Source of the DNA: a virus
Lineage: Duplodnaviria > Heunggongvirae > Uroviricota > Caudoviricetes
Virus record (IMG/VR): IMGVR_UViG_3300019755_000001
Reading direction: 5' to 3' (one strand)
Length of the DNA stretch: 43,713 nucleotides
In this document: piece by piece, positions 4,546-27,702 of the stretch
Numbering within the stretch: the stretch's first letter is position 1
Layout of the letters: each line of letters starts with the position of its first letter
Translations under genes and position numbers: made by a program
The notes under the pieces: generated by a model
What the model saw: the letters and a program-made list of their open reading frames with translations, nothing else
What the model was told of the DNA's origin: nothing
Database searches by the model: none

Positions 4546-4555
4546 AGGGGTAACT

Positions 4556-8112: not shown

Positions 8113-8168
8113 TAATCCTTTAATTAGTATATTATATACATAATTATTTGCAATTGCTTGTAAGCCCA

Positions 8169-8344: not shown

Positions 8345-8371
8345 TCAGAATAACAACACAAGGATATTAAA

Positions 8372-9652: not shown

Positions 9653-9705
9653 TCTACCAGGCACTCACTGAGTGTCTTACTAAGTTAATCAACAAAGGAA
9701 CTAAT

Positions 9706-9921
9706 TTGAACAAACTACAAGCCGACTGGCTACTGAATAACCAACCATCTGTCACTATCGAACCAACTCCACCCAAGTCTATTGACGAAGTGGAGCAGTC
9801 GATCAAGGAACACAAACGACTATCTATTGAGCGTTCATTAACTACTTGGCCTGAAGCCACTAGGGAACGAGCTAAGTTCAAGGTGTCTGACGACTACACA
9901 ACTTTTAACTACGGAGACTAA
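9706..9921 (+). CDS. Hypothetical protein
   Basis: TTG start after AAAGGA SD inside track ORF 9598-9921. Confidence 0.55.
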   Translation: MNKLQADWLLNNQPSVTIEPTPPKSIDEVEQSIKEHKRLSIERSLTTWPEATRERAKFKVSDDYTTFNYGD

Positions 9922-9922
9922 C

Positions 9923-10147
9923 ATGAACCAATTTATCGAACAACTCGACCAAATGATCGAGGACAGCGCAGAATTTACTCAACAGCATGAGGATGAACTG
10001 CTTGAGCACATACTTGAACATTCTTGCTATACTAGCTTATCTGAGTTCGCTATGACTAACATCAGTTACGAGCAAGCACTGGAAATCGTGCAAACTGACG
10101 ACCAGTTCGACCAGGACGCACTTGACTGGGTGAATAACCGATCATGA
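9923..10147 (+). CDS. Hypothetical acidic protein
   Basis: GGAG SD, 74 aa. Confidence 0.65.
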   Translation: MNQFIEQLDQMIEDSAEFTQQHEDELLEHILEHSCYTSLSEFAMTNISYEQALEIVQTDDQFDQDALDWVNNRS

Positions 10148-10920: not shown

Positions 10921-10988
10921 TGGAGTTTGTTCTATTATTTATCTTTGCTTGTATCATATTCGAACACCTCACCGGCCAGGCTACTTAG
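10920..10988 (+). CDS. 22-aa hydrophobic peptide
   Basis: ATG overlapping the previous TGA, AAGGGG SD; MEFVLLFIFACIIFEHLTGQAT. Confidence 0.35.
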   Translation: MEFVLLFIFACIIFEHLTGQAT

Positions 10989-13900
10989 CCACAGCTGGTG
11001 TTGTTATCATCTTCAGTATGTTGATTGGGTCTCCCCAACCACCTACTTTCCGTAGTATTGCATCTATTGGCGAGTAGTACTGATCCCATGGCGTTTCTGC
11101 GTCTATCCCGCTCACTCCTTGAGCACCTTCTGTTATGAACACTGTTCCTGCTTTTTTACCTAGCATCTTCATCATTGCTGGAAATACTCTGAAGAAGTAC
11201 TTTGTGAAGCTGAATATCAGCGTATCATTCGCATACTTTATCCCTCTATTATCCAAATAACCATAATTTACTGTTAACCCATCCACATAATTCAATACAT
11301 TTTGCTCTACTTGCTTAGCAGTAGCGTCTTTACCGCCCAACTTACCAGCAAACGTTTCATGCTGTTTATCTTTATCAGCACTATTGTAATCTGCCATCAA
11401 GTCTTGGTATATTATCATCTTTGTTATCACATCGGCATATGTCGTTAACTTCATTGTCGAATCATACAGTGGCGAGTCTTTTCGCACGTACAACGTATCT
11501 ATTACTTCTTTTATCCCAACTTTATCATTCTTTCTTTTCAGCTTGTCCAGTACAGCATCCAATTTACCCTCAATTATCCCTTTTTCATTCATCCATTCTG
11601 TGTTCAAATCTTCCAATATCGCAGTGTACTGCCCATCCTTCATCAACGGTTCAACTGGACTGTTTTTCATTCTGTTTTCTATGTTTTTCAACTCTTTTTC
11701 GTCTATTGTTTCACCAGCTTCTCTTCTGATTGCCAGCTTACTTGCCATTCTTCTATCGTCTTGGTATTTATTCATCTCCGACCACATGTCTGTGAATCTA
11801 CCCAAGTACTTCAGTGGGTCTTTACTCTTTGTGTGTTGCAGGGCAATTACCATATTCGACCCATTATTACCAATTATTGTCCCAGCTGTTTTTGCTACTA
11901 CTGCTTGTTTCCAGCCTTGTGTCAACTCCTGTACAATCTTCTCAGCCTTTCTCACCACCAACTGTCGTCTTTTACTGTTCTTTATCATCGGCAAGTTCAT
12001 TGCGCTCATGTCTTTGTATCCAAAGAAGTCTACTAACATACTTTCTTCTACCATCAATCTGCCACCCATTGTTTTATCAATCTGTGCTTTTAAGTAGTAC
12101 GGTATACTATCCCAGTATTCTTTTTCTTTGCCCTCTGAGTTTTCGCTTATCTCTACGAACTTATAATCTCTACTGCTCTCGTACTTTGTGTGGAACCGTT
12201 TGAAGTACGCTATTGCTTCCTTGTTACTTATCATTGCCTCTTGCTTGTGAGTCAAATCCGACACTGTACCACCAACTGTTGGTAATATGTCATCTTCTAT
12301 CTCCAAATACTTACTCTTAACCTCATGTGGTATTCTTACTCTGTAGTCATATATTTCATTCTTACCTGATCTTTCTGGTATTAACGCATTCTTTACTTTA
12401 GCTGTTTCTTTACTCATGTTATCTATTACTATCTCTGCTTCTACGTCTGTTAACTCGTTTACTTCCATTAGAATTCTTCTTAAGCTGTCACCTTCATTCT
12501 TCAGCTGTACCTTGCTCATTAGTCCTTCCGTATACCCAACTTCCATTGATTCGCCTACTACCAAGTACATATCTTTACCAACTGCTTCACTCAGTGCTTC
12601 CTGCTTACCCAAGTTACTCATTTTAGCTCTTTCCAAGCCCTTTAACTCTTTTTCTTCTACTATGTAGTATCTTTTGTTACCAATATACTCTTCTTGCTTT
12701 GCGCCTTTTATTTGGTACATAGAATCTCCACTATATGCATCTTCTAGTACTTTTGCTTCATTTGTTCTCATCAACTCCATTGCGTGGTCAAATCCTTTTG
12801 CCACATCCACTATTTTACCCTCTGGCGTTACCGACTCTTTTGTCAGTGCTTGTATTACCAAATCTTTATTTTCTTTTGCACTGTATCTTAATGCTATCAG
12901 CGACGCCATCTTGTCAATCTCTGCCACTGTCTTTTGGTTTTGTGTCTTTAGTAGTGCGTAACTGATCTGTGATGCATTCACATATCCATTTGCTGTGTCT
13001 GTGCTGTTATCTACTAGTAGTTTACCCAATTGTTCTGTTGCGTCCACTACCTGTTTACTATAGTTGTGTTTAAATATATTCAACTCAGCTGTTATTCTTC
13101 TCTCGTCTTGTAAGTACTTCAGTATTTGCTTACTACCGCCCAGCACTTTCGCATCTGTGTCTATCAGCACTCTCTTTGCTGCTCGTCTCTCACCTTTCGA
13201 TAGTCTACCCAATTCGTAATCTTTGTCCAGTACCTCAATCGTGAAGTGCTTTACTGGTGCTACTGCGTTCTCTACAAATGCTTTTGCGTGTCGGAACATT
13301 TGGTAGAACTTTGCCACATCTTTATTCGACATATCTCTTGTCACACTTGCGAATATGTTATTTTTCAATATGTAACTTTTTGCTTTTGCTATACCTCTTA
13401 TTTCCCATACCTTATCAATCGCTTTCTTCAGTCCACTTTTGTTCTCAGTTTGTCTGATGTAATCAGCGTACGACCTTTGTGCTTTCTTCTCTAGTGTTGT
13501 TAACTCCGCTACTTTACTATCAATCTTGTCTAATCTCTGTAGTAACCTCTCCGAGATAGTCATTTCTTCTTGTTTTCTGTTACTATGACCCAACTCCATT
13601 GCTTTATTTAACATGTCTATTGTTATTTCTCTGGCGTCCTTACCTTTGAACTTAGTGTTTCTGTACACTTGATTGATTATCTTAGCTATGTTGTTCCACA
13701 GCTTCTTCCATCTGCTTTTTGTACCTGGTTCTATCTTCATTGTACCCATTATTTGGTACTCTTCGAACTGATTTACTGTACCAAGTGCTTCTGCTAATTT
13801 CTCATTTGTTGTTGCTGCTGCCAGGAACTCACTTGCTTGGTCTGATGCTATCGGGTTTCTAAACACATATTCCCATCTCTCTTTAGCGAACGCCTTATCT

Positions 13901-14700
13901 TCTGCTGTCACATCACCATCTGGCAAGAATACTTCCCAGCTGATCTCTTTTGCTATTGCGTCTCTCATTCTCAGTATCTGTGATGTCAGTACTTTATCTC
14001 TTACCAGTACATTGTGTATTAGTATATGTTGTAATTCATGTGCTAGTATGTCTGAGTTGCTGTTGAATCTTGTGTTACCTTGTATTAACTTCAATTTACC
14101 ACTATCTACTGTAGCCTCACCTTTTGCGCCTTTATTGTCCAGGTCCTTGAACAGCTCTACGTCAATCTTCACGTCTTTACCAGCTTTCATCAGTACGTCT
14201 TTGTACATATTCATCACTCGCTTCAACTGCTCACTTACTGGCTTACCATCTGCTTCTGCAGCTACTGTTGCTAGTATGTCGATGTCATTTACTATCGTAC
14301 CACCCAATTGTCCCATGAACTCAGTATTTCTTTTACCCTTTTCACTACCCAGTGTGGCCATTGTTATTCCATCTGTCAGCATTCCTGTGTCTAGTTTCAG
14401 ATCATGTTCACCGTTTATTCTTACTTTGTTGTTCGACAACATCTCTGTAGTCTCAACCTTCACGTCAGCTTCTGTGTTAGTTTCCATGTCCTGTAGTGTC
14501 AGTGTCTTACCAACTAGCTCAGAGCCTCTATCGATGTACGGACTGACCCTTTTATCTGGGTCTGCATACATACCTTGCCGAGTAGCTCTGTTCACTCCTG
14601 CCTCAATCCGTCTTTTGTACTCAACTGCTTGTTTAGCAGTTTCTATTACTTCTCTAGCTTCATTTTCTTCGTTTATTAGTGTGTCTAGTTTACATCCCAT
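10981..14700 (-). CDS. Large virion/ejection protein equivalent to the C-terminal part of N4 vRNAP, with zincin-like HExxH domain
   Basis: LAHELQH (H221-H225) plus downstream SEFLA (E291); last gene of the late operon after the RNAP core; single Cys at position 3. Confidence 0.7.
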   Translation of the reverse strand: MGCKLDTLINEENEAREVIETAKQAVEYKRRIEAGVNRATRQGMYADPDKRVSPYIDRGSELVGKTLTLQDMETNTEADVKVETTEMLSNNKVRINGEHDLKLDTGMLTDGITMATLGSEKGKRNTEFMGQLGGTIVNDIDILATVAAEADGKPVSEQLKRVMNMYKDVLMKAGKDVKIDVELFKDLDNKGAKGEATVDSGKLKLIQGNTRFNSNSDILAHELQHILIHNVLVRDKVLTSQILRMRDAIAKEISWEVFLPDGDVTAEDKAFAKERWEYVFRNPIASDQASEFLAAATTNEKLAEALGTVNQFEEYQIMGTMKIEPGTKSRWKKLWNNIAKIINQVYRNTKFKGKDAREITIDMLNKAMELGHSNRKQEEMTISERLLQRLDKIDSKVAELTTLEKKAQRSYADYIRQTENKSGLKKAIDKVWEIRGIAKAKSYILKNNIFASVTRDMSNKDVAKFYQMFRHAKAFVENAVAPVKHFTIEVLDKDYELGRLSKGERRAAKRVLIDTDAKVLGGSKQILKYLQDERRITAELNIFKHNYSKQVVDATEQLGKLLVDNSTDTANGYVNASQISYALLKTQNQKTVAEIDKMASLIALRYSAKENKDLVIQALTKESVTPEGKIVDVAKGFDHAMELMRTNEAKVLEDAYSGDSMYQIKGAKQEEYIGNKRYYIVEEKELKGLERAKMSNLGKQEALSEAVGKDMYLVVGESMEVGYTEGLMSKVQLKNEGDSLRRILMEVNELTDVEAEIVIDNMSKETAKVKNALIPERSGKNEIYDYRVRIPHEVKSKYLEIEDDILPTVGGTVSDLTHKQEAMISNKEAIAYFKRFHTKYESSRDYKFVEISENSEGKEKEYWDSIPYYLKAQIDKTMGGRLMVEESMLVDFFGYKDMSAMNLPMIKNSKRRQLVVRKAEKIVQELTQGWKQAVVAKTAGTIIGNNGSNMVIALQHTKSKDPLKYLGRFTDMWSEMNKYQDDRRMASKLAIRREAGETIDEKELKNIENRMKNSPVEPLMKDGQYTAILEDLNTEWMNEKGIIEGKLDAVLDKLKRKNDKVGIKEVIDTLYVRKDSPLYDSTMKLTTYADVITKMIIYQDLMADYNSADKDKQHETFAGKLGGKDATAKQVEQNVLNYVDGLTVNYGYLDNRGIKYANDTLIFSFTKYFFRVFPAMMKMLGKKAGTVFITEGAQGVSGIDAETPWDQYYSPIDAILRKVGGWGDPINILKMITTPAVAK

Positions 14701-15340
14701 TCATACATTCCTTCAGTTCTTCGTGTCGATTATTCTTTTTATCTGTATCAGTTATGTTACCATCTTTTTGCTTAGTTTCTGCAACCGTTTTTACCTCTAC
14801 TTCACCATCGTCTAGCAGCATTTTGTGTCTCATTAGTGTATCTTCGAGCATCTTTGTTGTATCTTTACCCAACTTACTACCATCTGGATCTGCTGCATCA
14901 CCAATCACTATGTAACCTTTTGCCTTCATCAGTTCTTCCTTGAACTTAGGGTCATTTGCTACTACTTTAGTAACCAACTCTGCCATTAACTGCTTCTGCT
15001 CTAATACTGGTCTTGTTACTTTCTTTCCATTTACCTTCTTCGACTTCTGGAAATTGAACGCCTCAACCATGCTCTTATACCCTACCGTCTTGTTTGTTTT
15101 TGGGTATCTACTGTTCCACACATTCTGTAGGAACTGTACTTCGTTACTTAGTGTGTTGTTTGGGTGCATTACGTTAGTGCCATCAACTATTGTCACCTCT
15201 CCATCTGCTTTCAATTTAGTTATTTTCAGCCCTTGTAGTGCTTCATTCAGCTCTACTTGTCTGCCTGCTGTCTGATTGGCACCTACCTTAGCGTATCGCT
15301 CTGTAAGTGCTATCATTTCGTCTATTATACATTTGCTCAT
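14690..15340 (-). CDS. Middle fragment of split vRNAP locus, NADAR(YbiA)-like domain
   Basis: LSN...YKSMVEAFNFQK...LMAELVTKVVANDPKFKEELMK...D..D...LEDTLMRHK follows the NADAR consensus order; coupled by overlaps to both neighbours. Confidence 0.5.
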   Translation of the reverse strand: MSKCIIDEMIALTERYAKVGANQTAGRQVELNEALQGLKITKLKADGEVTIVDGTNVMHPNNTLSNEVQFLQNVWNSRYPKTNKTVGYKSMVEAFNFQKSKKVNGKKVTRPVLEQKQLMAELVTKVVANDPKFKEELMKAKGYIVIGDAADPDGSKLGKDTTKMLEDTLMRHKMLLDDGEVEVKTVAETKQKDGNITDTDKKNNRHEELKECMNGM

Positions 15341-18300
15341 TAGCAGTTCTCCTCTAGTCTTTGTGTCTGCATTTGGTCGAACTTAGTTTGCAGTACTTTT
15401 CTTAGTTTCTTATCTTCGATATTACCAAGTGTTTCATTTATTGATTGTAGTATACCATTTCTTCTATTTGAGTTACTTTGTTTCTTAGCTTTACTTCGCA
15501 AGTTTTGTGCGAATTGTCCAAGTACGTCGCCAAGCTCAGTTATTTGCTCATCTTTTGTATTTTCGTCGAACACAGCATTTACTGTCTCGTCACCCTTTGC
15601 TTCGTATGCTGGTGCAATGTCTGTAGCGTAGTATTGGTTCGATTTTACTTTCTTACCTCTCATTGCTACTCTGTTATCATGTATTTTATCAATCTCTGTT
15701 AACGGATCACCACTATTCAGTGCCTCAGCCACTTGGTTCACACTTTTCATGTCTGGATATACTCTCTTCATTGCACTCTCTGTCTCGTCGAAGTCAATCA
15801 ACTCTAGTGCTTGTTTGATGTTCAGTTTACCGTCTTTCTTTAGCTTCAGTAACTTCTGTACTGCATTACCAAGTATGCTGTGTCTCATGTTGATGTCCAG
15901 GAACGCTTTGTTCATTGCTTGTGCTTGTAGTATTCCTTTTTCACCATTTACTCCTAGCATCAATGCATCGTACACGTTCAGCACATCTTCTGTATTACCT
16001 TCAATCATTACTGTACCATCCACGTCATGGATTTGCACAACTCCAACGGCTCCAACGTTTGTTACTACATCTTTTACCTGGTTGCTTAGTGTTACTGCTG
16101 TACTTCCACTACCACTCTGGAACCCAGCATTTCTCACCTGTACTGACAGCTTACTTGTGTTTGCATCTGTTTTCTCCAGTTTTACTAATTCTTGTTGTCC
16201 ACCACTAGCATTGTTCGAGCTGTAGTATGTCCCTTCTTTCTGCATCTCAGCGTACACTTTGTCTAGTTGCTTTTGTGTTAACTGCGATATTCTCGTAGCA
16301 CCCAATTTAGCTAGTTTCTTATTCAGCTCTGTTCGGAACACCATGTAGTTCAGTTGCTCAATCAGCTTTACCGACTCTCTGAACTTCACTACTTCACCGA
16401 ACTCTGTTGTGAACGCATTTGCTAGTTGTTCACCAACTTGTTCATCTATTGCGTTGGTTAGTGTATTTACTGTCTCATCTTCCATATACCGTACTGTTGT
16501 GTCACCTTTAGCAACTCTGTCTGCTAGTTGTTTTTGTAACTTCGCTATTGGTTTTTTACTTGCTTCAGCTTCAGCCTTATCATCTGCCGCTTTTGCTAGT
16601 TTCTTAGTGTCTTTGTTGTACTTCAGCATCTTGTTTGCACTAGCAATCGTTTCATCGTACTTTGCTATCTCTTTTGCCAATTGTACTTCACTTTGTACTT
16701 TACCATTTTCTGGGTTGTATATCTTGTTCTCGTACTTAATCTCCAACTCAGCAGCTGTCTTACCTGTTAGTTTTTGCAGTGCATCTGTTGCACCTTTACT
16801 CATTCCTCCAGGGATGTAGCTATTACCAACTATCAGTGATCTTGCAGCAGCCTGACGGATGTTTGCCATTCCAGCACCGTATATGAATACCATTACTGGT
16901 CCCTTCATGAAGTTTCTCCACTTACCTCCTAGTACTTCTTCCATTGCTGCTAGTATCTCTGCTCCACCTTCTTGCTTCAGTATTCCCTCAACTACCATTG
17001 TTTCTGGTGTTTGGTATATATCTTTACCGCCTTGCTCTTTGTATTGTCCATGATTGTCGTACCGGTCGTAGTAATCATCAACGTACATCCCAGTTTTCGA
17101 TAAGTGCAGTTTTGTTGCTTCTGTGTACCCAATTTGCATTAGTGTCGCACTCATTCCGTTAGTAATCCCATCTATCTCTAGTGCCAAGTTAGTTGTTGCT
17201 ATACCGTGCTTTTCCAAGTCATTCAGCATTTGTACCAACTGTAGTGTGTGTAACTTCTCATCTATGCTATGTACTCCACCCCATTTGTTAACTGCTTCTA
17301 GCGTACCTTCTTTTACCATTTCTTCGAACTCTTTACTGCTGTATGTTACTTTTGCATTATCGTCGATAGTGAAGTATTTCTCACTCATCTTAGCTATTGA
17401 TGTAGCATCTTCCAACTTATCGATGTCCATGTCCAGTGCTTGTGCTGCACCAGCTCTTACGAACGCCATTGTCTCCTTGTCTACTTTACCAGTTTCTATT
17501 GTTGTTGTCATGTCTCCTGCACCTACCAGGAATCTACTGATCTTACTGTTTTGTGGGTTCATCATCATTGAGTCCATCATTGTTCTACCACTTTTTGTGT
17601 AGTCGTACGGGATGTAGAACTCACCAGCTCCTACCATCTCATACACTTCAATCATTCTCTCTATCTGCAACTCATCTGCTGTGTACTTAGCGTGCACCGA
17701 CTCAGCGTTCATTGTTGCTGTACTTGCCAGTATTGTGTCCAAGTCCCCCAGTATGTCCATTTTAAGCTTATCTACGTCAATTGTATCATCAGCTTTAGCA
17801 TATTGTCCCAGTACTTTGTGTGCCTGTTCACTGAACGTCCACGGTGTAGTACCCAATCTCTCTTGGTACTCAACTGCTGGATCACTCATCTCTGTGCTTG
17901 TCTTTCTTGCTTTCTTACCTTTCTTTGTGTGTATTGGTTCTGTGTCTATTGTTGGTGTTGTACTGCTTTGTGCGAACTCTAGTGTTGACCCAACTCTAGC
18001 GTATTCTGCCGGCACATCTTCCATCATCAGTACGCTGATTACTCCACCAGGTCTCTTGTCTTCACTTGGCTTCTCGAAGTCTATCATCCCGTGTTGCACG
18101 AACGCATTTTGTCTGTATACACCGTTCTTATGTGACGAGTGTGTTCTTAGCATGTTACTTAATACCATTGCTCCTAGTGAGTGCTCAATCGCGTTCTTAT
18201 CCTCAATTATTAGTGAATCGTCTAGCTTTATTCCCATCTCAGTCAGTAGTGTCTTACCTGCTGATTCATACAGGCTTGCTGCTGGTACTAACTCTCCTCG

Positions 18301-21300
18301 TTTTATCTTGCTTTCTAACATCTTCTTCGAACTATCTGGAACTATTCCTGTTGCTGGGAACAAGTTACCGAACGAACCATCTATCAAGTCGTGCATCTGG
18401 TCTCTGTTGTATGTCATCATTGCTTTTGCTTTACTGAACATTATCAGTGATGTTGTGTCCATTGCACCCTTTACCAACTCAGCATTTTCTGGGTCTGACA
18501 GTATGTCGTTCATTCCACTTTGTATCAGTATGTTCTTGTCGTTTAGCTCTAATTTTGCTAAGTTTGTTTGCTCTAGTACTGGTATGTTAGCTCTGTCTGT
18601 GCTGAACGTATTCAGTGTTTTCAATGCTGTTTTTACTCTCTCTACGCCTTTTTTACCAGCGTTTTGGATGATTCTTGGCATGATTTTCATCAATCCAGCT
18701 TCTTTATCTTTCATGTTCAATACTGTATGTGTAGTACTTACTCCGCCTGACTTCGACTTAGTTATTCCCTCAACTACCGGAATACCTAGTGCCTCAACCT
18801 TTACCATCTCCTGTGCTTTTTTCTTGATCTGAATGTCGGCTTTTACTGATTTTATCTTTTTGTCAACCTCTTTGATCTCTTCTTTAGCCAGTCTGATGTT
18901 CTCTTTTTGCTCTACTATTATCTTCTTCAATGAACCAATAACTTCTCTTGCTGTCTTGAACAACTTCCATACTCTTTGTACCAGTGTTTGTGGTGCTAAG
19001 TCTTTTTTGTTCTTAGCAGCTTTCAGCATCTTGCTAACCATTGTTAACCTGCTCTTGTGTTGGTCCATTCTACTTTGTATTGCTGCTTTGTCACTCTCTA
19101 GTTTACCAAGTTCTACTGTGTACTCATCTATGTCGTTTTGTACCTTCTCGATTATCTCATTTACCAACTCTGCGTCTAGCCTCTTACCAGCCTTCACTTG
19201 CACTATTTGCTCACCAACTTTCTTTACTGCTTCATCTATTGACTTCTCAGTCTTTTCTGTTGCTTCGGCCACTGTCTCTGCTGTTGTTTCTTTTGGCTTA
19301 GTAACTTCTCCGTCTTGCTTTGCTCGGATCTTCTCTGCTACTTCTACCTTTGTTTCTTGTGGTATTGTGCTATCGGCATCAACTTGTGCCATTGCTCTGT
19401 CCAAGTCACCCTCATTTTGCTCTATTACCTCATCTACGAATAGGTCTGGTGCACTCTCATCTGCTTGTGGTATGTTTGTGTCCTCGTACTTAGCTAATTC
19501 GGCTACTATTGTGTCCTGTTGTGCTGTATCAGCTGATTCTTTACTTAATAGCTCTGTGTACATCGATTTGTACTGTTTTAGCTCCAACTTCTCCTTGATA
19601 CTAGCAATCGCATCCATTTCACCATTCAGTGCTGTTTGTGCCTCTGTAATCTTCTCTAGTTGAGCCGGTGTCAAGTTACCAGATTCTATCGCAGCTTCTG
19701 CTATTTCTGCCATTCTGCTATTCTCTGCTTCTTGGCTCATTATGTAGTTGCTAATCTCTTGTGGTGTACGCAATCTCTTTACTTTTACTCGTTGCTTTTG
19801 ACCTTCAACTTTCTTCGATTGTGTTGTCACACCTTCCAGCTTACCAACTCTTGAGTGCATGAATGTTGTTAGTTCATTCACTACTCCACTTGCTGCATCT
19901 TCGTCTTTTGTTAGTGGGCTAACTATTGTCCCGACTACATCTGCTTCGTGCTGACGTAAACTCTTACCAACCGAGTTTCTTTTCACGAATCCCATAAACT
20001 CAATCTCATCTGCTACTTGTTGTGCTGTCTTTTTTGGTGATTTACCATCCTCATTTGCTTCACTACCAAGTTGTTTCTCATACAGTTCTAATCCATCTTC
20101 AACCTTGTTAGCATACTGTGTTACCGGCTCACTACCAAGCTTTCTCATGTCTTGTAGTACTGCTTTAACCTTCGCTAGTCCTTCAGCGTTTAATGGAGTA
20201 TTTTCGTTGATCTCAGCTTTCTGTTCATCTGTCATTGATTCAGTTAGTGTATCTATTTCTTCTGCTACTCTGTTGCTGTATATTTGCTCTATTTCTGACT
20301 GAGTAACCATCCCAACTTCTTGGTTTTTTATCATTTCACTCAGCATTGAGTCAACTTCAGCGTCTGTTGCAACTCTTACTTCGTCTTCACCTTTCGATGT
20401 CATGTGTCTTACAGCATCTCTTACCAATCCAGCATGCAGTACATCCATTGCTACTTTATCTGTTTTGTCTACACCATACACGTCTGCTATCTTTTCAGTA
20501 GCGTCTTTCATTGCATCAAGTGGTCTACCAGCATATCCTGACTTCTTCTGTATTTCCGGACTTGTCCATATCTCTGTAGCATATGCAGCAATATCATGTG
20601 CGTGTGCTTTTACTGCTTCTGGAGCAACTTCGTACCCTTCACTACCAACTGACTCCCATCTATTTTGTCTACCATCTCTTGTCTTTGACACATCAACATT
20701 TGTTGGGTCTGGTTGACTGTCTGTGATATTTACCAACTTCTCATTAGCTACTGTACCAACTGTTTTTGCCACGTCATACCCTACTTTTGGTGATGCTATT
20801 TGTGTACCCATTGCAGCACCTAGTACTCCTGCTACTTCAGCTTCTTTTATCTCGTCTTCTGTGAACCCTTTGTCGAATACTCTTGGTGTTTGTGCGGCTG
20901 TTTCAAGGAATGTTTGTCCTGCCTCAGTTAGTCCTTCTACTCCACCAGCAGCAGCAAGTCTTAACGGAGCTGACCCAATCTGTAGTATCCCTCTACCGTA
21001 TTGTTTAGCAAGGGTTCGTTTACCTGTTTGGCTCATGTTGTCTACTACTGTCTTTAGTGCTTTCTTAACTGGATTCATTCCGCTTAATGCTAGTTTATCA
21101 CCGAATCTATCCAAGTATGTACCAACAATACTTGACCCAGCACTTAGTACTTTCTCATTTGTTGTTAATTTTCTCTTTAATTTCGATTCTGCTATGTTAA
21201 TGTTATTATTTACGTTAGCTACGGCCATTGTACCAACACTTGCAGCTAGTGCAACCATTTCAGGTAAGCTCCCTGCAAGCACTTCAAGTGATCTTACATC

Positions 21301-22176
21301 CGTTACAGCTTTACCAAGTGCCGACATATATCCATCTGTTTCTATTGTGTCTTCTATCTCTTTACTCAGTTCTTGCACGTTTACTGCATTGTACCCAGTT
21401 ATCTTATCAGCAAACCCACTTTGTAGGAACTCTGTAGCAGCTTGTTGTATTGCTGTACCACTTTTCTCTACATCCTCAACCCCAATCAGTTGTCCAAGTG
21501 ACTCAATCCCCTCACCAACAAGTGAGCCTACTTTTACCCCTACATTGAACGAAGCACTACCAACTCCTCTTAGCGTGTTGTAATCTTCTACTGGTCTTAC
21601 TGTTTCTGTGCCACGTTTACTAGCAACTGATTCCATTTCTGCAGCGTACTCTGGGTCAGCCCATAGTCCTTTGCCTTGCTCTTTTGCTTGTAGCATCAGT
21701 TCTTGTGCTTCTGGTGTTTGATTATCGAATGCAGGTATTGCATACCCATCGGATACCATTTTATTCTGGTATGCCTTATTCTCTATCACGTCTCTACCAT
21801 GCACCCCAACTGTCGATGCTTCTGGTGTATTCTGATATACTGGTTGTTGTTTTGTATCGTCGAAGTGTGTTTCTTGGAAGCCCCCATCAATTCCACTGAA
21901 ATCCAGTGTACTGAACTCAGCCTCTAATTTAGCGGCTTCTCCAGCTGTTGCTTTACTTACGTGTCTACCAAGTTTACTTTCTCTTGCTTTGCTCAGTCTA
22001 TCAGCTTTTAGTGCAGCTTTTGGCATTTCTGGTGCATCAATTCCAGCTATTCTATATCCTTGTCCGTCTTGGTATACGGTATCAGCATCGTATATGTATG
22101 TATCTGTGTTGTATTTATTTGTTTGTGTAGTTGGTTCTGCGAACGCACTATCTAGTAATTCTTTTTGAGTTGGCAT
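15340..22176 (-). CDS. Virion-encapsidated single-subunit RNA polymerase (N4 vRNAP-like) with N-terminal SNase/thermonuclease domain
   Basis: Motif A LALEIDGITNG (~17154-17188), motif B WRNFMKGPVMVFIYG (~16876-16923), motif C NVYDAL (~15960-15979); SNase motifs YDADT, RIAGIDAPE, HGR, MVSDGYA, AKEQGKGLW in aa ~25-176. Confidence 0.9.
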   Translation of the reverse strand: MPTQKELLDSAFAEPTTQTNKYNTDTYIYDADTVYQDGQGYRIAGIDAPEMPKAALKADRLSKARESKLGRHVSKATAGEAAKLEAEFSTLDFSGIDGGFQETHFDDTKQQPVYQNTPEASTVGVHGRDVIENKAYQNKMVSDGYAIPAFDNQTPEAQELMLQAKEQGKGLWADPEYAAEMESVASKRGTETVRPVEDYNTLRGVGSASFNVGVKVGSLVGEGIESLGQLIGVEDVEKSGTAIQQAATEFLQSGFADKITGYNAVNVQELSKEIEDTIETDGYMSALGKAVTDVRSLEVLAGSLPEMVALAASVGTMAVANVNNNINIAESKLKRKLTTNEKVLSAGSSIVGTYLDRFGDKLALSGMNPVKKALKTVVDNMSQTGKRTLAKQYGRGILQIGSAPLRLAAAGGVEGLTEAGQTFLETAAQTPRVFDKGFTEDEIKEAEVAGVLGAAMGTQIASPKVGYDVAKTVGTVANEKLVNITDSQPDPTNVDVSKTRDGRQNRWESVGSEGYEVAPEAVKAHAHDIAAYATEIWTSPEIQKKSGYAGRPLDAMKDATEKIADVYGVDKTDKVAMDVLHAGLVRDAVRHMTSKGEDEVRVATDAEVDSMLSEMIKNQEVGMVTQSEIEQIYSNRVAEEIDTLTESMTDEQKAEINENTPLNAEGLAKVKAVLQDMRKLGSEPVTQYANKVEDGLELYEKQLGSEANEDGKSPKKTAQQVADEIEFMGFVKRNSVGKSLRQHEADVVGTIVSPLTKDEDAASGVVNELTTFMHSRVGKLEGVTTQSKKVEGQKQRVKVKRLRTPQEISNYIMSQEAENSRMAEIAEAAIESGNLTPAQLEKITEAQTALNGEMDAIASIKEKLELKQYKSMYTELLSKESADTAQQDTIVAELAKYEDTNIPQADESAPDLFVDEVIEQNEGDLDRAMAQVDADSTIPQETKVEVAEKIRAKQDGEVTKPKETTAETVAEATEKTEKSIDEAVKKVGEQIVQVKAGKRLDAELVNEIIEKVQNDIDEYTVELGKLESDKAAIQSRMDQHKSRLTMVSKMLKAAKNKKDLAPQTLVQRVWKLFKTAREVIGSLKKIIVEQKENIRLAKEEIKEVDKKIKSVKADIQIKKKAQEMVKVEALGIPVVEGITKSKSGGVSTTHTVLNMKDKEAGLMKIMPRIIQNAGKKGVERVKTALKTLNTFSTDRANIPVLEQTNLAKLELNDKNILIQSGMNDILSDPENAELVKGAMDTTSLIMFSKAKAMMTYNRDQMHDLIDGSFGNLFPATGIVPDSSKKMLESKIKRGELVPAASLYESAGKTLLTEMGIKLDDSLIIEDKNAIEHSLGAMVLSNMLRTHSSHKNGVYRQNAFVQHGMIDFEKPSEDKRPGGVISVLMMEDVPAEYARVGSTLEFAQSSTTPTIDTEPIHTKKGKKARKTSTEMSDPAVEYQERLGTTPWTFSEQAHKVLGQYAKADDTIDVDKLKMDILGDLDTILASTATMNAESVHAKYTADELQIERMIEVYEMVGAGEFYIPYDYTKSGRTMMDSMMMNPQNSKISRFLVGAGDMTTTIETGKVDKETMAFVRAGAAQALDMDIDKLEDATSIAKMSEKYFTIDDNAKVTYSSKEFEEMVKEGTLEAVNKWGGVHSIDEKLHTLQLVQMLNDLEKHGIATTNLALEIDGITNGMSATLMQIGYTEATKLHLSKTGMYVDDYYDRYDNHGQYKEQGGKDIYQTPETMVVEGILKQEGGAEILAAMEEVLGGKWRNFMKGPVMVFIYGAGMANIRQAAARSLIVGNSYIPGGMSKGATDALQKLTGKTAAELEIKYENKIYNPENGKVQSEVQLAKEIAKYDETIASANKMLKYNKDTKKLAKAADDKAEAEASKKPIAKLQKQLADRVAKGDTTVRYMEDETVNTLTNAIDEQVGEQLANAFTTEFGEVVKFRESVKLIEQLNYMVFRTELNKKLAKLGATRISQLTQKQLDKVYAEMQKEGTYYSSNNASGGQQELVKLEKTDANTSKLSVQVRNAGFQSGSGSTAVTLSNQVKDVVTNVGAVGVVQIHDVDGTVMIEGNTEDVLNVYDALMLGVNGEKGILQAQAMNKAFLDINMRHSILGNAVQKLLKLKKDGKLNIKQALELIDFDETESAMKRVYPDMKSVNQVAEALNSGDPLTEIDKIHDNRVAMRGKKVKSNQYYATDIAPAYEAKGDETVNAVFDENTKDEQITELGDVLGQFAQNLRSKAKKQSNSNRRNGILQSINETLGNIEDKKLRKVLQTKFDQMQTQRLEENC

Positions 22177-22219
22177 ATTGTGTCACCTTCAGTTTTTATT
22201 TTACTGAGTGTAGCACAAT
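22177..22219 (-). promoter_or_regulatory. Imperfect mRNA hairpin occluding the vRNAP Shine-Dalgarno
   Basis: AUUGUG CUACAC UCAGU [AAAAUAAAA] ACUGA AGGUGA CACAAU directly followed by the AUG. Confidence 0.55.
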
Positions 22220-22232
22220 TTGTCTTATGGTT

Positions 22233-23588
22233 TTATTTAGCGTTATCTTTTATGTATTTTACTACATCTTTAGTAACCTCTCCACTGAACCGAGGGGTCC
22301 AATCTTGAGTATTGAATGTTGTGATTATACTTGCCAAATCAGCGTCGCTCATCTTAACATCTTTTGCTGCTTTTGCTATTTTAGCTTGGTCTTTTTCGTC
22401 AATTGTGCCTAACCCACTATCGTACGCTTGTAGCGTTTTTGGCCCAGCCCCATATTTCTTTGGTGTCTTGAACGCATCCCCTCGGTTGGCATATTGTTTA
22501 GTGCCTTTTACGTAATCCAGTAGAGCAGTACCTGTTAACCCCTTTGGTATCTGAATGTTCAATGTTTTAGCTAAATTTGTACCGACTCTGTGGTCATCTT
22601 GTGTTTCTTTTTGCATCTTTTTAACCTTGAACAGCTGATCGAATGTAGGCCCTTTAACTTCTTTTTCAAGAGCTTTCTTTGCTGCTAATTTAGTGCTACC
22701 AGTCAAGTCTGTTCTATTCATTATAGAGTCTACTGACTTCTTTAACCACTCTGTTTGTGTCATATTACGTGTAACTGGTACTTGCTTAGTAACTGTCTCA
22801 ACTAGTTTTGGTACTGTTGGCACTTCTAATGTACCACGAACTCCACCTAGCCCTGATTCTCTCAGTGCAAGTGTATGTGCCTGTTCTGGAGTATACATTT
22901 GTTCACTTGGTTGTTTTTTACCTAACCATCTACCAAATACTGAATCTGCTTCTATATAGCTACCATCGGTATTTTTAGTGTACTGTGTACCAGGAACCCT
23001 AGGAGCAGCACCAACTTTTTGATTACTGTATTTATCGAACAGTTCAGCATATTTTGTAGAGCCTTCTTCTTGTTGTTGTAACCTTTTTGTATTTTTATCA
23101 ATAACTCGATTACGCAGGTTTTTAGCAAGTTCGACTTCTGCCTCATTGCCTTGTCTCGTTACTCTTTTCTCTGTACCAGTAATCGTTTTATCCTGATTTG
23201 CTTGTACCAATGCATCCCCAAGTAACTTATCTTGTTCTGCTTTATTTTCAGCTCTTGTGTTTGTGTTTATTGAGTTCTGCAACGTCACACCCTTAGCAAG
23301 TACACCAGCATCAACTCCAGCGAACTTCTTATCACTAACGTCCCCGCCAGCAATTACTGTTTTTAGGTACTCCGAGTTCAACTTGTCTTTAGCCTCAGCT
23401 TTGTTCCGTTGTTCTCTTTGTTCTGCTAATTCAACACCTTTTATCACTGTATTACCAAGTGTATTGAATACACCACGAGTTGCATCTGCACCGGCAATTG
23501 CTGCCTGTTGCGCTGACGCTGTTGCTCTATTAGCACCACTCAAGTAAGCATTTGCTTCTGCACTGTTATCATACCAACCTTTTGCCAT
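22233..23588 (-). CDS. Internal virion/ejection protein (N4 gp51 position)
   Basis: 451 aa, Cys-free, Ala/Gln-rich N-terminus, directly upstream of vRNAP. Confidence 0.6.
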   Translation of the reverse strand: MAKGWYDNSAEANAYLSGANRATASAQQAAIAGADATRGVFNTLGNTVIKGVELAEQREQRNKAEAKDKLNSEYLKTVIAGGDVSDKKFAGVDAGVLAKGVTLQNSINTNTRAENKAEQDKLLGDALVQANQDKTITGTEKRVTRQGNEAEVELAKNLRNRVIDKNTKRLQQQEEGSTKYAELFDKYSNQKVGAAPRVPGTQYTKNTDGSYIEADSVFGRWLGKKQPSEQMYTPEQAHTLALRESGLGGVRGTLEVPTVPKLVETVTKQVPVTRNMTQTEWLKKSVDSIMNRTDLTGSTKLAAKKALEKEVKGPTFDQLFKVKKMQKETQDDHRVGTNLAKTLNIQIPKGLTGTALLDYVKGTKQYANRGDAFKTPKKYGAGPKTLQAYDSGLGTIDEKDQAKIAKAAKDVKMSDADLASIITTFNTQDWTPRFSGEVTKDVVKYIKDNAK

Positions 23589-23592
23589 GCTG

Positions 23593-23940
23593 TTATCCTA
23601 CTTGTGGTATTGCAAACGGATTTTGTTGCGTGTTTTGTGCTTGTGGTATACCAGCCGCACCAGCTAACCCTGTTTGTACTGTTGTTTGTCCAGGTATCGG
23701 AGCAGCAGGCTTCTTGTTACCATACAAGCTGTTAGCTAACCCCATCTCCATCTCGTTTTGTGTGTTTTCCTTAGCTATATCTGCTTTACCGGCTAACTCT
23801 TTTGCGTAATTGAATTGGTCTCGTGCTAACTGATTCATCTTTGACTGTTGATCAGCCATCATTTTAGCACTCTTTACTCCACCATAGGCTTGTAACCCAC
23901 CACCTATTACTGATCCGGCTGCTTGTATCCATCCTGACAT
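23593..23940 (-). CDS. Small ejection/pilot protein (N4 gp52 position)
   Basis: Gly-rich amphipathic N-terminus MSGWIQAAGSVIGGGLQAYGG followed by a Gln-rich coil; Cys-free. Confidence 0.6.
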   Translation of the reverse strand: MSGWIQAAGSVIGGGLQAYGGVKSAKMMADQQSKMNQLARDQFNYAKELAGKADIAKENTQNEMEMGLANSLYGNKKPAAPIPGQTTVQTGLAGAAGIPQAQNTQQNPFAIPQVG

Positions 23941-24006
23941 ATCTATTCTCCTGTATTGGTTTTTGTTTTTATCTTACTACTAATTCACTTAATTTCAGCT
24001 TTGGGG

Positions 24007-25149
24007 CTATTTTTCCCATGGCTTCTTCCACACATTTTCCATTGATTTCCGTATATCTGTTAGCTCTTTTTCCATTCCACCTAAGCCAGCTTCAATTACA
24101 CTTAGCTGCTTCATTGTACTTTCATAGCTCTCTTTAGTTTTCATAGCGGAGGGCAAATCGTTGTAAGCATTTGCTATACTTTTGTACTGAGCAACTTTAT
24201 CATTGTATGTCTTTGTCTTGGTATTATACTGCTTAGTTAGCTTATTATAGTTTTGTAGGTTTCTCATTCTTATTGCTTCCTGTGGAGGCATTCCTCCACT
24301 GCTTTCACTCACATCTGTGTTTACAATATTCAAGTTGAATTTGTTTTCGAATAGCCCTCCTCCAGCTTGATCGGCATCTACGTGATTAATTAATTTATTT
24401 CCCTCACTTAACCCAAACTCACCACCAACACTTACTGCAAGTGAGTTCTTTTGGTCATATCCATACAAGTCACCACCTGAGTAGGTTTCGTTGTATATAA
24501 CTCCACCAGCCATCTTTTCAAACACCGTGCCATCCGCTACATCTATTAGGTTCTGATACCGTAGCCTAGCTTCTTGCTCTTGCGCCTGTATCAATTGTTG
24601 CATAGCAAACTGAATTGTTTTTGGGTTCATCAAGTGCGACAGTGCTCCATTTATTACACCACCTATTATTAATGAGATACCAAGACCAACAACTATCTCT
24701 GTTATGATTATCATTGACGCAGCAGCTACATAAGCTGCTCCACCGAGCCATGCACTGGCACCTGCAATAGCACCAGCAGACCAATCTGACATCGTTCCAG
24801 CAGAGAAGTAAGCTAGAGCTAGTGCTGCTACAATTACCCCAATGGCAGCAGTGCTGTACGCATCATCATAGAAAAAATCCTTTACTATTTTACCGAACCA
24901 ACTCCTGTCATCTAATCCAAGAGGTTTATACAAGCTTAAGTACTCCTGTTGTAGAAAGTCACCATGAGCGGTAACAACATCCGAACCGAATTCCTCAAAT
25001 GCACCTGACCAGCTATCTCCGCTAACAACACTACCAATAAACTTAGCAGGGGCTATAACATTCAACTGGAGAGACATCTTTATCTCAGCTACTACTAAAT
25101 CACCAACCTTCTCAAGTGCGGAGCCTACCTTTTTAGCTACCCCGCCCAT
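24007..25149 (-). CDS. Hydrophobic membrane-inserting virion/ejection protein (MGGVAKK... start)
   Basis: ATG 25149 with AAGAAGGG SD inside the 3' end of the GNAT gene; long multi-helix hydrophobic block in the N-terminal half; C-terminal coiled coil; Cys-free. Confidence 0.65.
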   Translation of the reverse strand: MGGVAKKVGSALEKVGDLVVAEIKMSLQLNVIAPAKFIGSVVSGDSWSGAFEEFGSDVVTAHGDFLQQEYLSLYKPLGLDDRSWFGKIVKDFFYDDAYSTAAIGVIVAALALAYFSAGTMSDWSAGAIAGASAWLGGAAYVAAASMIIITEIVVGLGISLIIGGVINGALSHLMNPKTIQFAMQQLIQAQEQEARLRYQNLIDVADGTVFEKMAGGVIYNETYSGGDLYGYDQKNSLAVSVGGEFGLSEGNKLINHVDADQAGGGLFENKFNLNIVNTDVSESSGGMPPQEAIRMRNLQNYNKLTKQYNTKTKTYNDKVAQYKSIANAYNDLPSAMKTKESYESTMKQLSVIEAGLGGMEKELTDIRKSMENVWKKPWEK

Positions 25150-25679
25150 TTTGACCAACCCTTCTTCCACTCGTATAGGTTCTCCCCAAGCTCTGACGGA
25201 ACTACACAGTTTTTGAACGTGTGTATATCTCTTGATTCTATCAGCATTGGTTTCTCCTTATTTAGTGATTTTATTATTGCTTTGAACATACTACCAACTA
25301 CTGGCTTACGTCTCAACTCTTCTTGCACATGGAAGAACGCAAACACGTTATAGCCTTCTGTTTCGAACGTTAATGCAACCCCAGCGTACTTTCTTGTTTT
25401 CTTATGTCTAATTATTGCACCATAGCCAAGAGCCACATAATTTTTCATCTCAGTCCTAGTTGGTAATTCCATCTCAACACCAGTATCTTTCAAGTATTTT
25501 AATACTTTTACTGTGTCTTTTGCACCCATCCTCATCAGCTCGTATTCATCATTACCAGTTGGCTCGAACTCAGGCTTGGCCTTTTGTTCTATCAATGGTT
25601 TTACCAACTTCTCAATCTCTTCAATTGTCGGTAGTGACTTTATTCGTTCTATGTTATTGTGTGCAATTGTATTTACCAT
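25137..25679 (-). CDS. GNAT-fold acyl/acetyltransferase
   Basis: YELMRMGAKDTVKVL (beta1-alpha1), YAGVAL, FFHVQEELRRKPVVGSMF (motif A-like VxxxxRxxxxGxxL). Confidence 0.65.
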   Translation of the reverse strand: MVNTIAHNNIERIKSLPTIEEIEKLVKPLIEQKAKPEFEPTGNDEYELMRMGAKDTVKVLKYLKDTGVEMELPTRTEMKNYVALGYGAIIRHKKTRKYAGVALTFETEGYNVFAFFHVQEELRRKPVVGSMFKAIIKSLNKEKPMLIESRDIHTFKNCVVPSELGENLYEWKKGWSKWAG

Positions 25680-25680
25680 A

Positions 25681-26547
25681 TTATACCTCTATTGTACAAC
25701 TTCCGTAGAAGTTCCCCAGTCCACTAGCATTTACCAAGTACTTGCCTGGCTCTTCTCTATCCAGGAGCATACACAGTTCTATTGCTGTGCTAACTCCTTG
25801 TGTGTGACCTATTTCTTTCTTGTACTCAATCAGCTCAACATCACCGTACATTTCTTCGATTGCAGTATACTCAGCCTCAGTGTTGTTTGGTGTCTGTGTA
25901 CCATGTGTTTTCACTGCTTTTATCTGCTCTTCGGCAAATGGTTTCATAGCCTTCATATATCCTTCTTTACTTACGAAGAACGGATTTTTGTCTGCATGGT
26001 ACACCCAATTCACTGTACTGATTTGTTCACCTCTTTGTAAGTGTAATATAGCAAACCCATCACTACAAGTTAGTGTTATCCCCATCTTCTCGAACAGCAG
26101 TCTTTGTGTTGGATCAGTCCAGTCTTCGGCATACACAATCACATCATCGAACTTATTGCTGTTTAGTAGCATCTCAGCTTCCTGTAGTGCGTGCATACTA
26201 GCCCCACAGGTATTGGCACATATACTCAAGTAGTCAGCACCGTATCGAGCAGCTACTTTACTTGCTATGAACCCAGCTTGACTTTGTACTGGCATTACTC
26301 CTTTTGGTATTGGTGCTGTATCTGTGAAATCCCTAGAGCAACTATGGTGTTCACTTGGACCAATTACGTACAACACAGCAGTTCTACCAGTTGGTTTGAT
26401 ACTGTTTACCTTGTCTTTATATGTCCGACTATTGTATGTGTTCATAAACGTTTTATCACGCTTCTCTAATGTTGATCCTATGTACATAGCCTTACCATCT
26501 TCACTTATTGTGTCTGGCAGTACGTAAACATAATTAACTACGTTCAT
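25681..26547 (-). CDS. Compact beta-ketoacyl-ACP synthase (FabF/FabB-like ketosynthase)
   Basis: Catalytic C114 (ANTCGAS), H215 (KTHGTQT), K243/H248 (YKKEIGHTQG), SDGFAIL, NNTEAE, NASGLGN, equivalent to FabF TACS, HGTST, KSMTGH, NSFGFGG. Confidence 0.88.
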   Translation of the reverse strand: MNVVNYVYVLPDTISEDGKAMYIGSTLEKRDKTFMNTYNSRTYKDKVNSIKPTGRTAVLYVIGPSEHHSCSRDFTDTAPIPKGVMPVQSQAGFIASKVAARYGADYLSICANTCGASMHALQEAEMLLNSNKFDDVIVYAEDWTDPTQRLLFEKMGITLTCSDGFAILHLQRGEQISTVNWVYHADKNPFFVSKEGYMKAMKPFAEEQIKAVKTHGTQTPNNTEAEYTAIEEMYGDVELIEYKKEIGHTQGVSTAIELCMLLDREEPGKYLVNASGLGNFYGSCTIEV

Positions 26548-26773
26548 GGTACTCTCTATACAAGTCTCTAATTGTGTATGTTTCGTAGTCTATACCATTA
26601 ACGTACTCATTGCCAAGTTCTACTACCTCGGACTCGAAGTAGGCCCAGAAGAATGCGTACGAGAACGAGTCCATTTCACTATTTATTAGCAAGTCGTCTA
26701 TATCCAGTATTTCAAGTCCATCCTGTTCTTCGATGAACTCATTTATCTGACTTAGGAATTGTTCTTCAGTCAT
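26534..26773 (-). CDS. Acyl carrier protein
   Basis: 79-aa very acidic helical protein (ATG 26773, AGGTGG SD); EMDSF with Ser36 at the phosphopantetheine position; C-terminal TIRDL (TVxDL motif). Confidence 0.8.
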   Translation of the reverse strand: MTEEQFLSQINEFIEEQDGLEILDIDDLLINSEMDSFSYAFFWAYFESEVVELGNEYVNGIDYETYTIRDLYREYHERS

Positions 26774-26782
26774 ACTAACCAC

Positions 26783-27307
26783 CTATGCCGCAGGTGATAA
26801 GTCTGGATTTAACGGAGCTGCCTCACCTGTTAATGCTGCGTTTAGGTTGAAGTACGTTGCCCACATTGTTGCTGTTGGTTTTAACCCTCCTGCTCCAACT
26901 GTACCAATCATATCACCCATACTATCCATTGCTTTAATTAATTTATTGTGCTCAACTTGCTCGATTAACTTCTCTTCTTGTGTCTCAACGTATGCAGTAT
27001 CTGCAACCATTTTGGCAATCTGTGAGTCTAGTATACCACCTTGTTTAGCGATGTTATCCACCTCTAGTTGGTATTTACCTTCTTTATCAGCTAATGCTAG
27101 TGCTGTTTGCATAGCCCCTGTTGTAATACTAGTTGTTATGTTTGCTATGAAGTTAGTAAGTAACTCAGCTTTTTCCTTCTCAGTAATGTTGAAGTTATTG
27201 AACTCATTCTGTACGAATGCTTTTGTTAAGTCATACGGACTGCCATCAGCTGTTGCTGCCGCCATTAGGTTTGTATATTTTACTAAATAGTCTTCTGTAA
27301 ATGCCAT
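26783..27307 (-). CDS. Virion structural protein (N4 gp54 position)
   Basis: 174 aa; synteny downstream of MCP/gp55-like genes. Confidence 0.5.
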   Translation of the reverse strand: MAFTEDYLVKYTNLMAAATADGSPYDLTKAFVQNEFNNFNITEKEKAELLTNFIANITTSITTGAMQTALALADKEGKYQLEVDNIAKQGGILDSQIAKMVADTAYVETQEEKLIEQVEHNKLIKAMDSMGDMIGTVGAGGLKPTATMWATYFNLNAALTGEAAPLNPDLSPAA

Positions 27308-27702
27308 TAATCTATTCCTTGTGTTGTTTTATTAGTTGTTGTAGTACCATTATCATCTACATACGTATGTGTATGTGCTGTATAAGCCTCAGTGTCTAAT
27401 GTACCATCTGGATTGAACGTCACTTCAAGTGCTATTGCTATTGCATCCATTTTATTGTTTAGTATAGCAAGTTCTGTATTAATTGTACCTGTATCGGTCT
27501 CAAGCGTATCCAGTCTATCATTTGTGTTGTTTGCTGATACTGCCGTGCCTGTGAAGTTAACACCAAGCGAAGTGGCCATTGAGAGAAATCTTAGTCTATC
27601 GTCTTCGTATTTACTATCTACGTCAATAACTATTGTGTTAGCTTTGGCTATACCAATCTTTCCGAACTTTTTACTTTTACCGTTTAGTATTGATGTACCC
27701 AT
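27307..27702 (-). CDS. Putative small fibre/spike protein with coiled coil and HxH motif
   Basis: Heptad segment LDTLETDTGTINTELAILNNKMDAI, then AHTHTY near the C-terminus. Confidence 0.45.
   Translation of the reverse strand: MGTSILNGKSKKFGKIGIAKANTIVIDVDSKYEDDRLRFLSMATSLGVNFTGTAVSANNTNDRLDTLETDTGTINTELAILNNKMDAIAIALEVTFNPDGTLDTEAYTAHTHTYVDDNGTTTTNKTTQGID

Follow-up and report, generated by a model that had tools for sequence, protein, structure and literature searches.

We analysed a 43,713-nucleotide stretch of the virus record IMGVR_UViG_3300019755_000001 (the window), in which the N-terminus of a predicted virion RNA polymerase (vRNAP) carries a staphylococcal-nuclease (SNase) domain. 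The source phage is uncultured and of marine type; its virus record is complete, 107.7 kb long, and carries direct terminal repeats. Among cultured phages, the Alteromonas podoviruses AD45-P1 to P4 are nearest to it (portal 48% identical). The vRNAP gene lies within the structural module, where the portal, coat and tail genes share its strand. It is a minus-strand open reading frame (ORF) at 15340-22176 that encodes 2278 amino acids (aa) in one continuous open frame, with the SNase region at its N-terminus. The interval to which a first-pass annotation had assigned an SNase domain (21649-22104, minus strand) corresponds to residues 25-176 of this protein. The start codon, ATG at 22176, is backed by a Shine-Dalgarno-like sequence 7 nt upstream and by co-linear N-termini in 15 large homologues. 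The gene and the features of its head are listed here.

15340..22176, minus strand: gene for vRNAP part 1 (2278 aa), a single open frame comprising the SNase head, the N-terminal domain (NTD), a Lys/Glu-rich linker and the polymerase domain
22184..22190, minus strand: Shine-Dalgarno-like GAAGGTG, 7 nt 5' of the vRNAP ATG, found by reading the sequence
21604..22107, minus strand: SNase/thermonuclease-fold domain, residues 24-191 (structurally aligned core 24-175), from the family hidden Markov model (HMM) match to 24-191, an AlphaFold2 (AF2) model compared with VIA-align, Foldseek and Pfam PF00565
22027..22092, minus strand: catalytic block 1, residues 29-50 (D30, D32, T33, R42, D47, P49, E50), invariant in 16 close homologues and kept at 90% or more in a 100-sequence alignment
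21793..21807, minus strand: catalytic block 2, GVHGR, residues 124-128, from columns of the 100-sequence alignment
21946..22026, minus strand: insertion 1, residues 51-77, a helical insert that replaces the short SNase omega loop and leads into the invariant SKATAGEAAKLEAE helix, from AF2 helices and the homologue alignment
21811..21903, minus strand: insertion 2, residues 92-122, a loop present in some relatives only, seen as a gap in 11/16 homologues and modelled with a predicted local distance difference test score (pLDDT) of 66-71

Residues 24-191 are a true member of the SNase/thermonuclease family with two lineage-specific insertions. Pfam, the family profile, the predicted fold and residue conservation were concordant in bearing out the domain that the first-pass annotation had proposed, and the motifs on which that proposal was built were all found in the translation (YIYDADT at residues 27-33, YRIAGIDAPE at 41-50, GVHGRDV at 124-130, NKMVSDGYA at 138-146 and QAKEQGKGLW at 163-172). 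In the HMM search against SNase PF00565 that had been suggested as a check, residues 1-200 scored 21.1 bits (E 4.5e-4), borderline against the cut-off of 21, and the whole 2278-aa protein scored 12.3 bits, below the cut-off. The match to residues 1-200 covered the C-terminal half alone, because the match is broken by the two insertions; the homologues without insertion 2 (P0012, P0013, P0014) reached 25-30 bits over profile positions 3-107. A profile made from 29 heads recovered 116 short proteins, all of which carry PF00565 except for 3 fragments of the head family itself. The PF00565 proteins recovered in this way reach down to E 1e-13, and many of them are named thermonuclease, YncB or micrococcal nuclease at their source. 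No match to PDB sequences was obtained by phmmer with residues 1-200 or with a 16-sequence profile; a deeper alignment, unlike these two queries, did match SNase in the same set. A chance resemblance of motifs, or a small gene wrongly joined to the polymerase, might be read into the borderline Pfam score of the window protein and its fall below the cut-off over 2278 aa, yet the continuous open frame, the presence of the same architecture in 26 large proteins and the agreement of profile, fold and residue evidence effectively refute it.

The first-pass annotation had staked its claim on an SNase oligonucleotide/oligosaccharide-binding (OB) fold, and the AF2 model matched SNase. With the 100-sequence alignment as input, the model of the head had a pLDDT of 84.6 and a predicted template-modelling (TM) score of 0.79, and it consisted of an OB-type five-stranded barrel and three helices. 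By VIA-align, model residues 3-154 superposed on SNase residues 13-143 (Z 11.1, root-mean-square deviation 3.0 Å, 107-109 of about 130 residues aligned). Foldseek returned 210 matches at E <= 0.001, and the top 50 among the matches listed were all S. aureus nuclease (E 2e-5, probability 1.0, TM-score 0.55-0.57 on the target). In the region of insertion 1 the model has helices at residues 54-66 and 78-89; S74, A76-E80, A82, E85 and A86 are invariant in the homologues, and the length of the insertion differs among relatives. With S. aureus SNase and its family (PF00565; PDB 1STN, 1SNC; B. subtilis YncB-type) the head thus shares the OB-barrel plus three-helix fold and the catalytic set. It differs from the family in having a helical insert where the omega loop would be, a second loop of 30 residues, and G/V/H at the positions of D83/K84/Y85, and in forming the head of a 2278-aa virion protein without a signal peptide rather than a secreted stand-alone enzyme. 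The SKATAGEAAKLEAE helix is highly conserved in fused heads and absent from free thermonucleases.

In SNase, D21 and D40 are Ca2+ ligands (with T41 through its backbone), E43 is the general base and R35 and R87 bind phosphate; the enzyme hydrolyses DNA and RNA in a Ca2+-dependent manner to yield 3'-phosphate products. The register of the window protein relative to S. aureus nuclease was taken from the joint alignment of 100 sequences, made up of 27 fused heads and 73 stand-alone nucleases. The catalytic equivalents that had been claimed were recovered in it (D30 = D19, D32 = D21, R42 = R35, D47 = D40, E50 = E43, R128 = R87), together with P49 = P42 and W172 = W140, and the D83 position was likewise Gly (G124). 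D30, D32, T33, R42, D47, P49, E50 and R128 were invariant in 16 homologues that are 42-78% identical, and D30, D32, R42, D47, E50 and R128 were each kept in at least 26 of the 27 fused heads, at identities down to 24%. The Ca2+ ligands D32 and D47 were each found in 26 of the 27 fused heads, and among the stand-alone nucleases D32 was present in 73/73 and D47 in 68/73; E50, R42 and R128 each occurred in 27/27 fused heads, and R128 was invariant in all 100 aligned sequences. The D83 column (124) holds D in 67/73 stand-alone and 19/27 fused sequences, and G in the window protein; the Y85 column (126) holds Y in 63/73 and 21/27, and H126 in the window protein. We conclude that the head has a complete predicted catalytic set, with Ca2+ ligands D32/D47, general base E50 and phosphate-binding R42/R128.

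The invariance of this set argues for an active enzyme over a binding module. Non-catalytic SN domains (Tudor-SN) have lost their catalytic residues, which counts against the idea that the head is a nuclease-derived binding or anchoring module that holds the leading genome end or single-stranded promoter DNA at the ejectosome and does not cut. Such a module would have no need of invariant Ca2+ ligands, a general base and both Arg across heads at 24-30% identity, and we consider it unlikely. It does have points in its favour: OB folds commonly bind nucleic acid, the positions of K84, Y85 and D83 differ from S. aureus nuclease, the NTD of the phage N4 vRNAP (gp50) is required for genome injection (PMC3821669; PMC13492108), and a head that binds without cutting would remove the danger of packing a nuclease with DNA.

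The head is borne by an N4-type vRNAP that is divided among three genes, the downstream parts of which are as follows.

15544..18282, minus strand: N4-type single-subunit RNA polymerase domain, residues 1299-2211 of part 1, from PHROG 2206 'virion RNA polymerase' (E 5.8e-44) and N4 gp50 motifs
14690..15340, minus strand: 216-aa middle piece of the split vRNAP, overlapping part 1 at TAATG (translational coupling)
10981..14700, minus strand: 1239-aa C-terminal-domain (CTD) piece with a zincin-type HELQH at residues 221-225, from PHROG 2206 positions 2280-3359 (E 1.1e-65)

The TxxGR motif (YDYTKSGR), motif A (EIDGITNG) and motif B (RNFMKGPVMVFIYGAG) aligned with N4 gp50 in pairwise BLAST, and motif C lies within the profile match; phmmer with the polymerase region found no match in the PDB, and pairwise BLAST to N4 gp50 was needed. 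The earlier claim of a fusion to the virion RNA polymerase held in that the SNase domain is the N-terminal head of an N4-type vRNAP, as judged by PHROG 2206 and the motifs. It needed amendment in that the vRNAP is split and the head sits on the NTD-plus-polymerase part only. NTD, polymerase and CTD do not form one chain here; they are encoded as 2278, 216 and 1239 aa with overlapping stop and start codons. The same split was found in the related sequences L004 and L017 and in AD45-P1, and the 216-aa middle piece has counterparts in L017 and L004 at 93% and 83% identity. The CTD piece aligned with residues 2357-3374 of P0021 (E 2e-113), an unsplit 3382-aa homologue that bears the same SNase head. 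The SNase-head architecture is shared by 26 large proteins, at least 22 of which also have the polymerase. With N4 gp50 (Schitoviridae) the window vRNAP shares a homologous polymerase domain and a CTD with zincin HExxH, ejection and structural neighbours and a Gly/Ala-rich NTD. The two differ in that gp50 is one chain of 3500 aa with no SNase and no Cys, whereas the window vRNAP is in three pieces, with Cys at the junctions and a nuclease head.

In the window vRNAP, Cys is confined to the junctions of the pieces: the last residue of part 1 (C2278), residues 4 and 212 in the middle piece (C4, C212) and residue 3 in the CTD piece (C3). Among about 60 split relatives, nearly all have one Cys in the last 5 residues, and where a piece is split at both ends, Cys is found at positions 2-4 as well; the unsplit N4 gp50, P0021 and P0185 have no Cys, and AD45-P1 and L003 show the same junction Cys pairs. 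This pattern suggests that disulfides may stitch the vRNAP pieces together in the virion and release them in the reducing cytoplasm. A split as in AD45-P1 is kept by many metagenomic relatives. RefSeq marks the split AD45-P1 vRNAP (L015 2624-14306, NC_021532) as a misc_feature, 'potential frameshift', not as two genes; the stop codon at the split was confirmed by polymerase chain reaction in the original paper (PMC3821669).

Polyvalent proteins include N4-like polymerases with ADP-ribosyltransferase (ART), lysozyme, PBECR1 RNase and zincin domains, and SNase is not mentioned among these (PMC5512222, Iyer et al. 2017). The window vRNAP resembles them as a giant protein predicted to be delivered with DNA that combines an effector domain with an N4-like polymerase and a zincin peptidase. 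The SNase head and the polymerase are on one chain, and the zincin peptidase is on a separate, coupled polypeptide. The HELQH motif (window 14026-14040, minus strand) matches the metallopeptidase proposed by Iyer et al. as the cutter of polyvalent proteins. No HExxH motif was found in the 2278-aa part or in the CTD piece of AD45-P1.

Comparison of related vRNAPs placed the boundary of the head region within the protein. The relevant features are the cassette and the gene upstream.

20767..22176, minus strand: exchangeable N-terminal cassette, residues 1-470 (about 460 aa), SNase head plus Gly/Ala-rich region, from mosaic identities, a DNA breakpoint and a hydropathy scan
22233..23588, minus strand: upstream 451-aa gene in N4 gp51-like position, the C-terminal 176 residues of which travel with the SNase cassette

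Over residues 1-470, P0002 and P0004 are 81% and 67% identical to the window protein, but their polymerase regions are just 24% identical. Conversely, the part of P0149 that corresponds to residue 454 and beyond is 88-93% identical, and it is preceded by an unrelated N-terminus of 562 aa. Relative to L017, the phage that encodes P0149, the DNA breakpoint is at 20766/20767, and a 6.9-kb block (20767-27688) is replaced in L017 (940-7940), with both flanks 90-93% identical. The replaced block comprises vRNAP residues 1-453 and eight upstream genes, including ejection-type genes. In L003 the coat and polymerase are only 27% and 25% identical, but identity rises to 67% over vRNAP residues 1-476 and to 50% over the C-terminal 176 residues of the 451-aa protein. 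These uneven identities (P0002, P0004, P0149, L017, L003) indicate that the moving unit is the C-terminus of the upstream gene together with the SNase and the Gly/Ala-rich segment. On the sequence comparisons, we conclude that the SNase head is part of an exchangeable cassette that is linked to ejection genes rather than to the polymerase. The Gly/Ala-rich region is weakly hydrophobic in the segments 202-220, 299-317 and 448-466 by hydropathy scan. When residues 1-480 and the C-terminal part of the upstream protein were modelled as a complex, no prediction was obtained (score 0.00). No sequence similarity was detected between the 451-aa upstream protein and N4 gp51, and none of significance between NTD residues 180-760 and the N4 NTD (E 0.34). 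Within the replaced block, the 451-aa protein is the only one that has a distant counterpart in L017 (31% identity).

The same comparisons bear on the idea that the nuclease acts on the phage's own DNA, trimming or nicking the incoming genome end or processing DNA in packaging. The head is attached to the protein that makes first contact with the genome as it enters, and N4-type genomes have terminal repeats and special ends, with direct terminal repeats in this phage's genome as well; these features would suit such a role. Against it, relatives that are 90-93% identical in polymerase, CTD and flanks have another head in place of SNase, and N4 and AD45-P1 are also without SNase. Since phages that are nearly identical do without it, SNase is not essential to genome processing in this lineage, and a role on its own genome is improbable. 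In addition, nicks would relax the supercoiling that N4-type promoters require (PMC11445570).

Among 42 relatives of the polymerase domain, an SNase head was found in 2, a second head type in 15 and a head with an invariant D-x-D in about 20, with none of these in 5. AD45-P1 to P4 (Garcia-Heredia et al. 2013, PMC3821669) are marine podoviruses of 100-104 kb with a split two-gene vRNAP and the same junction Cys; unlike the window vRNAP, the polymerase part of AD45-P1 has a type-2 head (HMM E 2.5e-52) and no SNase. The heads seen at this position are thus SNase, an apparent SNase-derived variant and at least one unknown type. Type-2 heads (alignment A5) are borne by P0149, P0152-P0154, P0156-P0160, P0167, P0171, P0174, P0178, P0179 and P0187, and by the vRNAP of the cultured AD45-P1 (L015 6861-14348); their invariant residues are Y112, K122, G124, R136, Y137, E172 and H176. 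The type-2 head gave no match in Pfam, a PDB profile search or the protein atlas, and no relation to SNase by hhalign; it may perhaps resemble T5orf172/GIY-YIG domains. The third type (alignment A4) is found in P0151, P0155, P0161-P0164, P0166, P0168-P0170, P0172, P0173, P0175, P0177, P0181, P0182, P0184-P0186 and P0188. It is marked by an invariant D-x-D, followed by D-x-x-E-x-x-H and, further on, by G-R, and its first 26 columns align with the SNase DGDT...R...DAPE block (hhalign probability 87%, E 4e-6); this head may have arisen from SNase by strong divergence and the gain of large inserts.

The variety of heads also bears on a purely structural role, in which the head would be a plug or docking knob for the upstream ejection protein and its catalytic residues would be kept for folding or metal-dependent stability. 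Co-transfer with the C-terminus of the upstream gene and the conserved SKATAGEAAKLEAE helix, which free thermonucleases lack, are what such a part would be expected to show. We nevertheless give this role little credence, because unrelated heads at the same position are a better fit to interchangeable cargo than to a fixed structural part, and the catalytic constellation is kept exactly as in active enzymes.

SNase-like motifs also open giant proteins that lack a vRNAP signature. In the cultured Aeromonas phage phiA008 (OL774570), gene 0066 (L001 8998-15150) encodes a 2050-aa virion protein with an N-terminal SNase (Pfam 30-34 bits); its remainder matches 'virion structural protein' PHROGs, not vRNAP, and it is 40% identical to the window protein over 45 residues only. 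Proteins with an SNase-like start are likewise encoded at L009 6370-14598 (2742 aa) and L011 8744-17905 (3053 aa). SNase heads are thus not confined to vRNAPs but are shared by further proteins presumed to lie inside the virion. Megablast of the vRNAP gene against deposited phages gave no match, and tblastn queries with three different heads detected an SNase-vRNAP in no deposited phage, the matches being limited to the non-polymerase protein of phiA008 and a weak hit in a Staphylococcus jumbo phage. No description of an SNase-vRNAP fusion was found in the literature.

Elsewhere in the window, coding switches strand near 10.5 kb (1-10000 plus, 10000-43713 minus), where GC and AT skew also change strongly. 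Genes for ribonucleotide reductase, thymidylate synthase and DNA ligase, which are ordinary for this phage group, lie in the plus-strand part.

We propose, with a probability of about 0.6, that the head is a catalytically competent, metal-dependent, sequence-nonspecific nuclease that is packaged and expelled with the ejection proteins. SNase-type enzymes require Ca2+ and are normally extracytoplasmic. Stored in the capsid at the N-terminus of the polymerase, the nuclease would leave with the ejection proteins at the start of infection and reach the host envelope or cytoplasm. The N4 NTD inserts into nanodiscs, and it has been proposed to form an inner-membrane complex with the C-terminus of gp51 (PMC13434306); by analogy with these two parts, the nuclease might come to lie where the ejectosome meets the membrane. 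If the enzyme depends on Ca2+, it would stay silent both during synthesis, with phage DNA replicating nearby, and during storage alongside DNA; activation would follow where Ca2+ is present, either in the periplasm or where the entry channel leaks. The nuclease would probably serve to cleave nucleic acid of the host or of competitors close to the site of entry; candidate targets are host DNA or RNA, competitor DNA and defence RNAs.

Several points weigh against this proposal. Free Ca2+ in the bacterial cytoplasm is sub-micromolar, and a canonical SNase would for this reason be nearly inactive there. Nucleotide-contacting positions are kept in part (K84 to V125, Y85 to H126, D83 to G124); F150 may stand for Y113, and no clear equivalent of Y115 was found in a loop where the alignment is uncertain. 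The alignment behind the confident AF2 model consists of stand-alone thermonucleases in 73/100 rows, and AF2 with the 16 fused homologues alone gave an unusable model (pLDDT 48). Packaging of this vRNAP in the virion we infer from homology and gene position only. Finally, engineered SNase in T4 heads shreds the encapsidated DNA, in the form in which that work is cited in PMC7697877, so a packaged active nuclease would need a safety catch, especially in seawater. The simplest such catch would be the Ca2+ requirement, perhaps combined with unfolded storage or with occlusion by the inserted helix.

A wider and more tentative possibility is that the vRNAP N-terminus may be a slot for an arms race. 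One horizontally exchanged unit, an ejectosome cassette, would combine an interchangeable enzymatic head with a membrane-associating segment and the C-terminal part of the upstream ejection protein. Its SNase version would be gated by Ca2+ and would act from the inner-membrane complex, only when and where DNA enters, on nucleic acids of the host or of competitors. The N-terminus of T7 gp16 is a lytic transglycosylase. The T7 protein is thus likewise an enzyme-headed one, but it acts on peptidoglycan and has no polymerase; gp16 is the largest ejected protein and the inner-membrane part of the ejectosome (PMC13434306).

Phages with polymerases only 24% identical exchange the head and membrane segment as one, along with ejection genes. 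This pattern suggests that the N-terminal region is functionally part of the envelope-crossing machinery and experiences diversifying pressure like that on tail fibres. The predicted SNase-vRNAP extends the known effector-bearing ejected polymerases with a head not previously reported from these phages; a conserved, apparently active nonspecific nuclease at the vRNAP N-terminus would be a new class of pre-made cargo for these phages. It raises the question of how a nuclease stays harmless beside packed and replicating phage DNA, and where it is switched on. N4-type vRNAPs are a model for the storage of megadalton proteins with DNA and for their passage through a tail channel of 30-35 Å, and if the nuclease is active, it may be a compact enzyme that tolerates unfolding and refolding.

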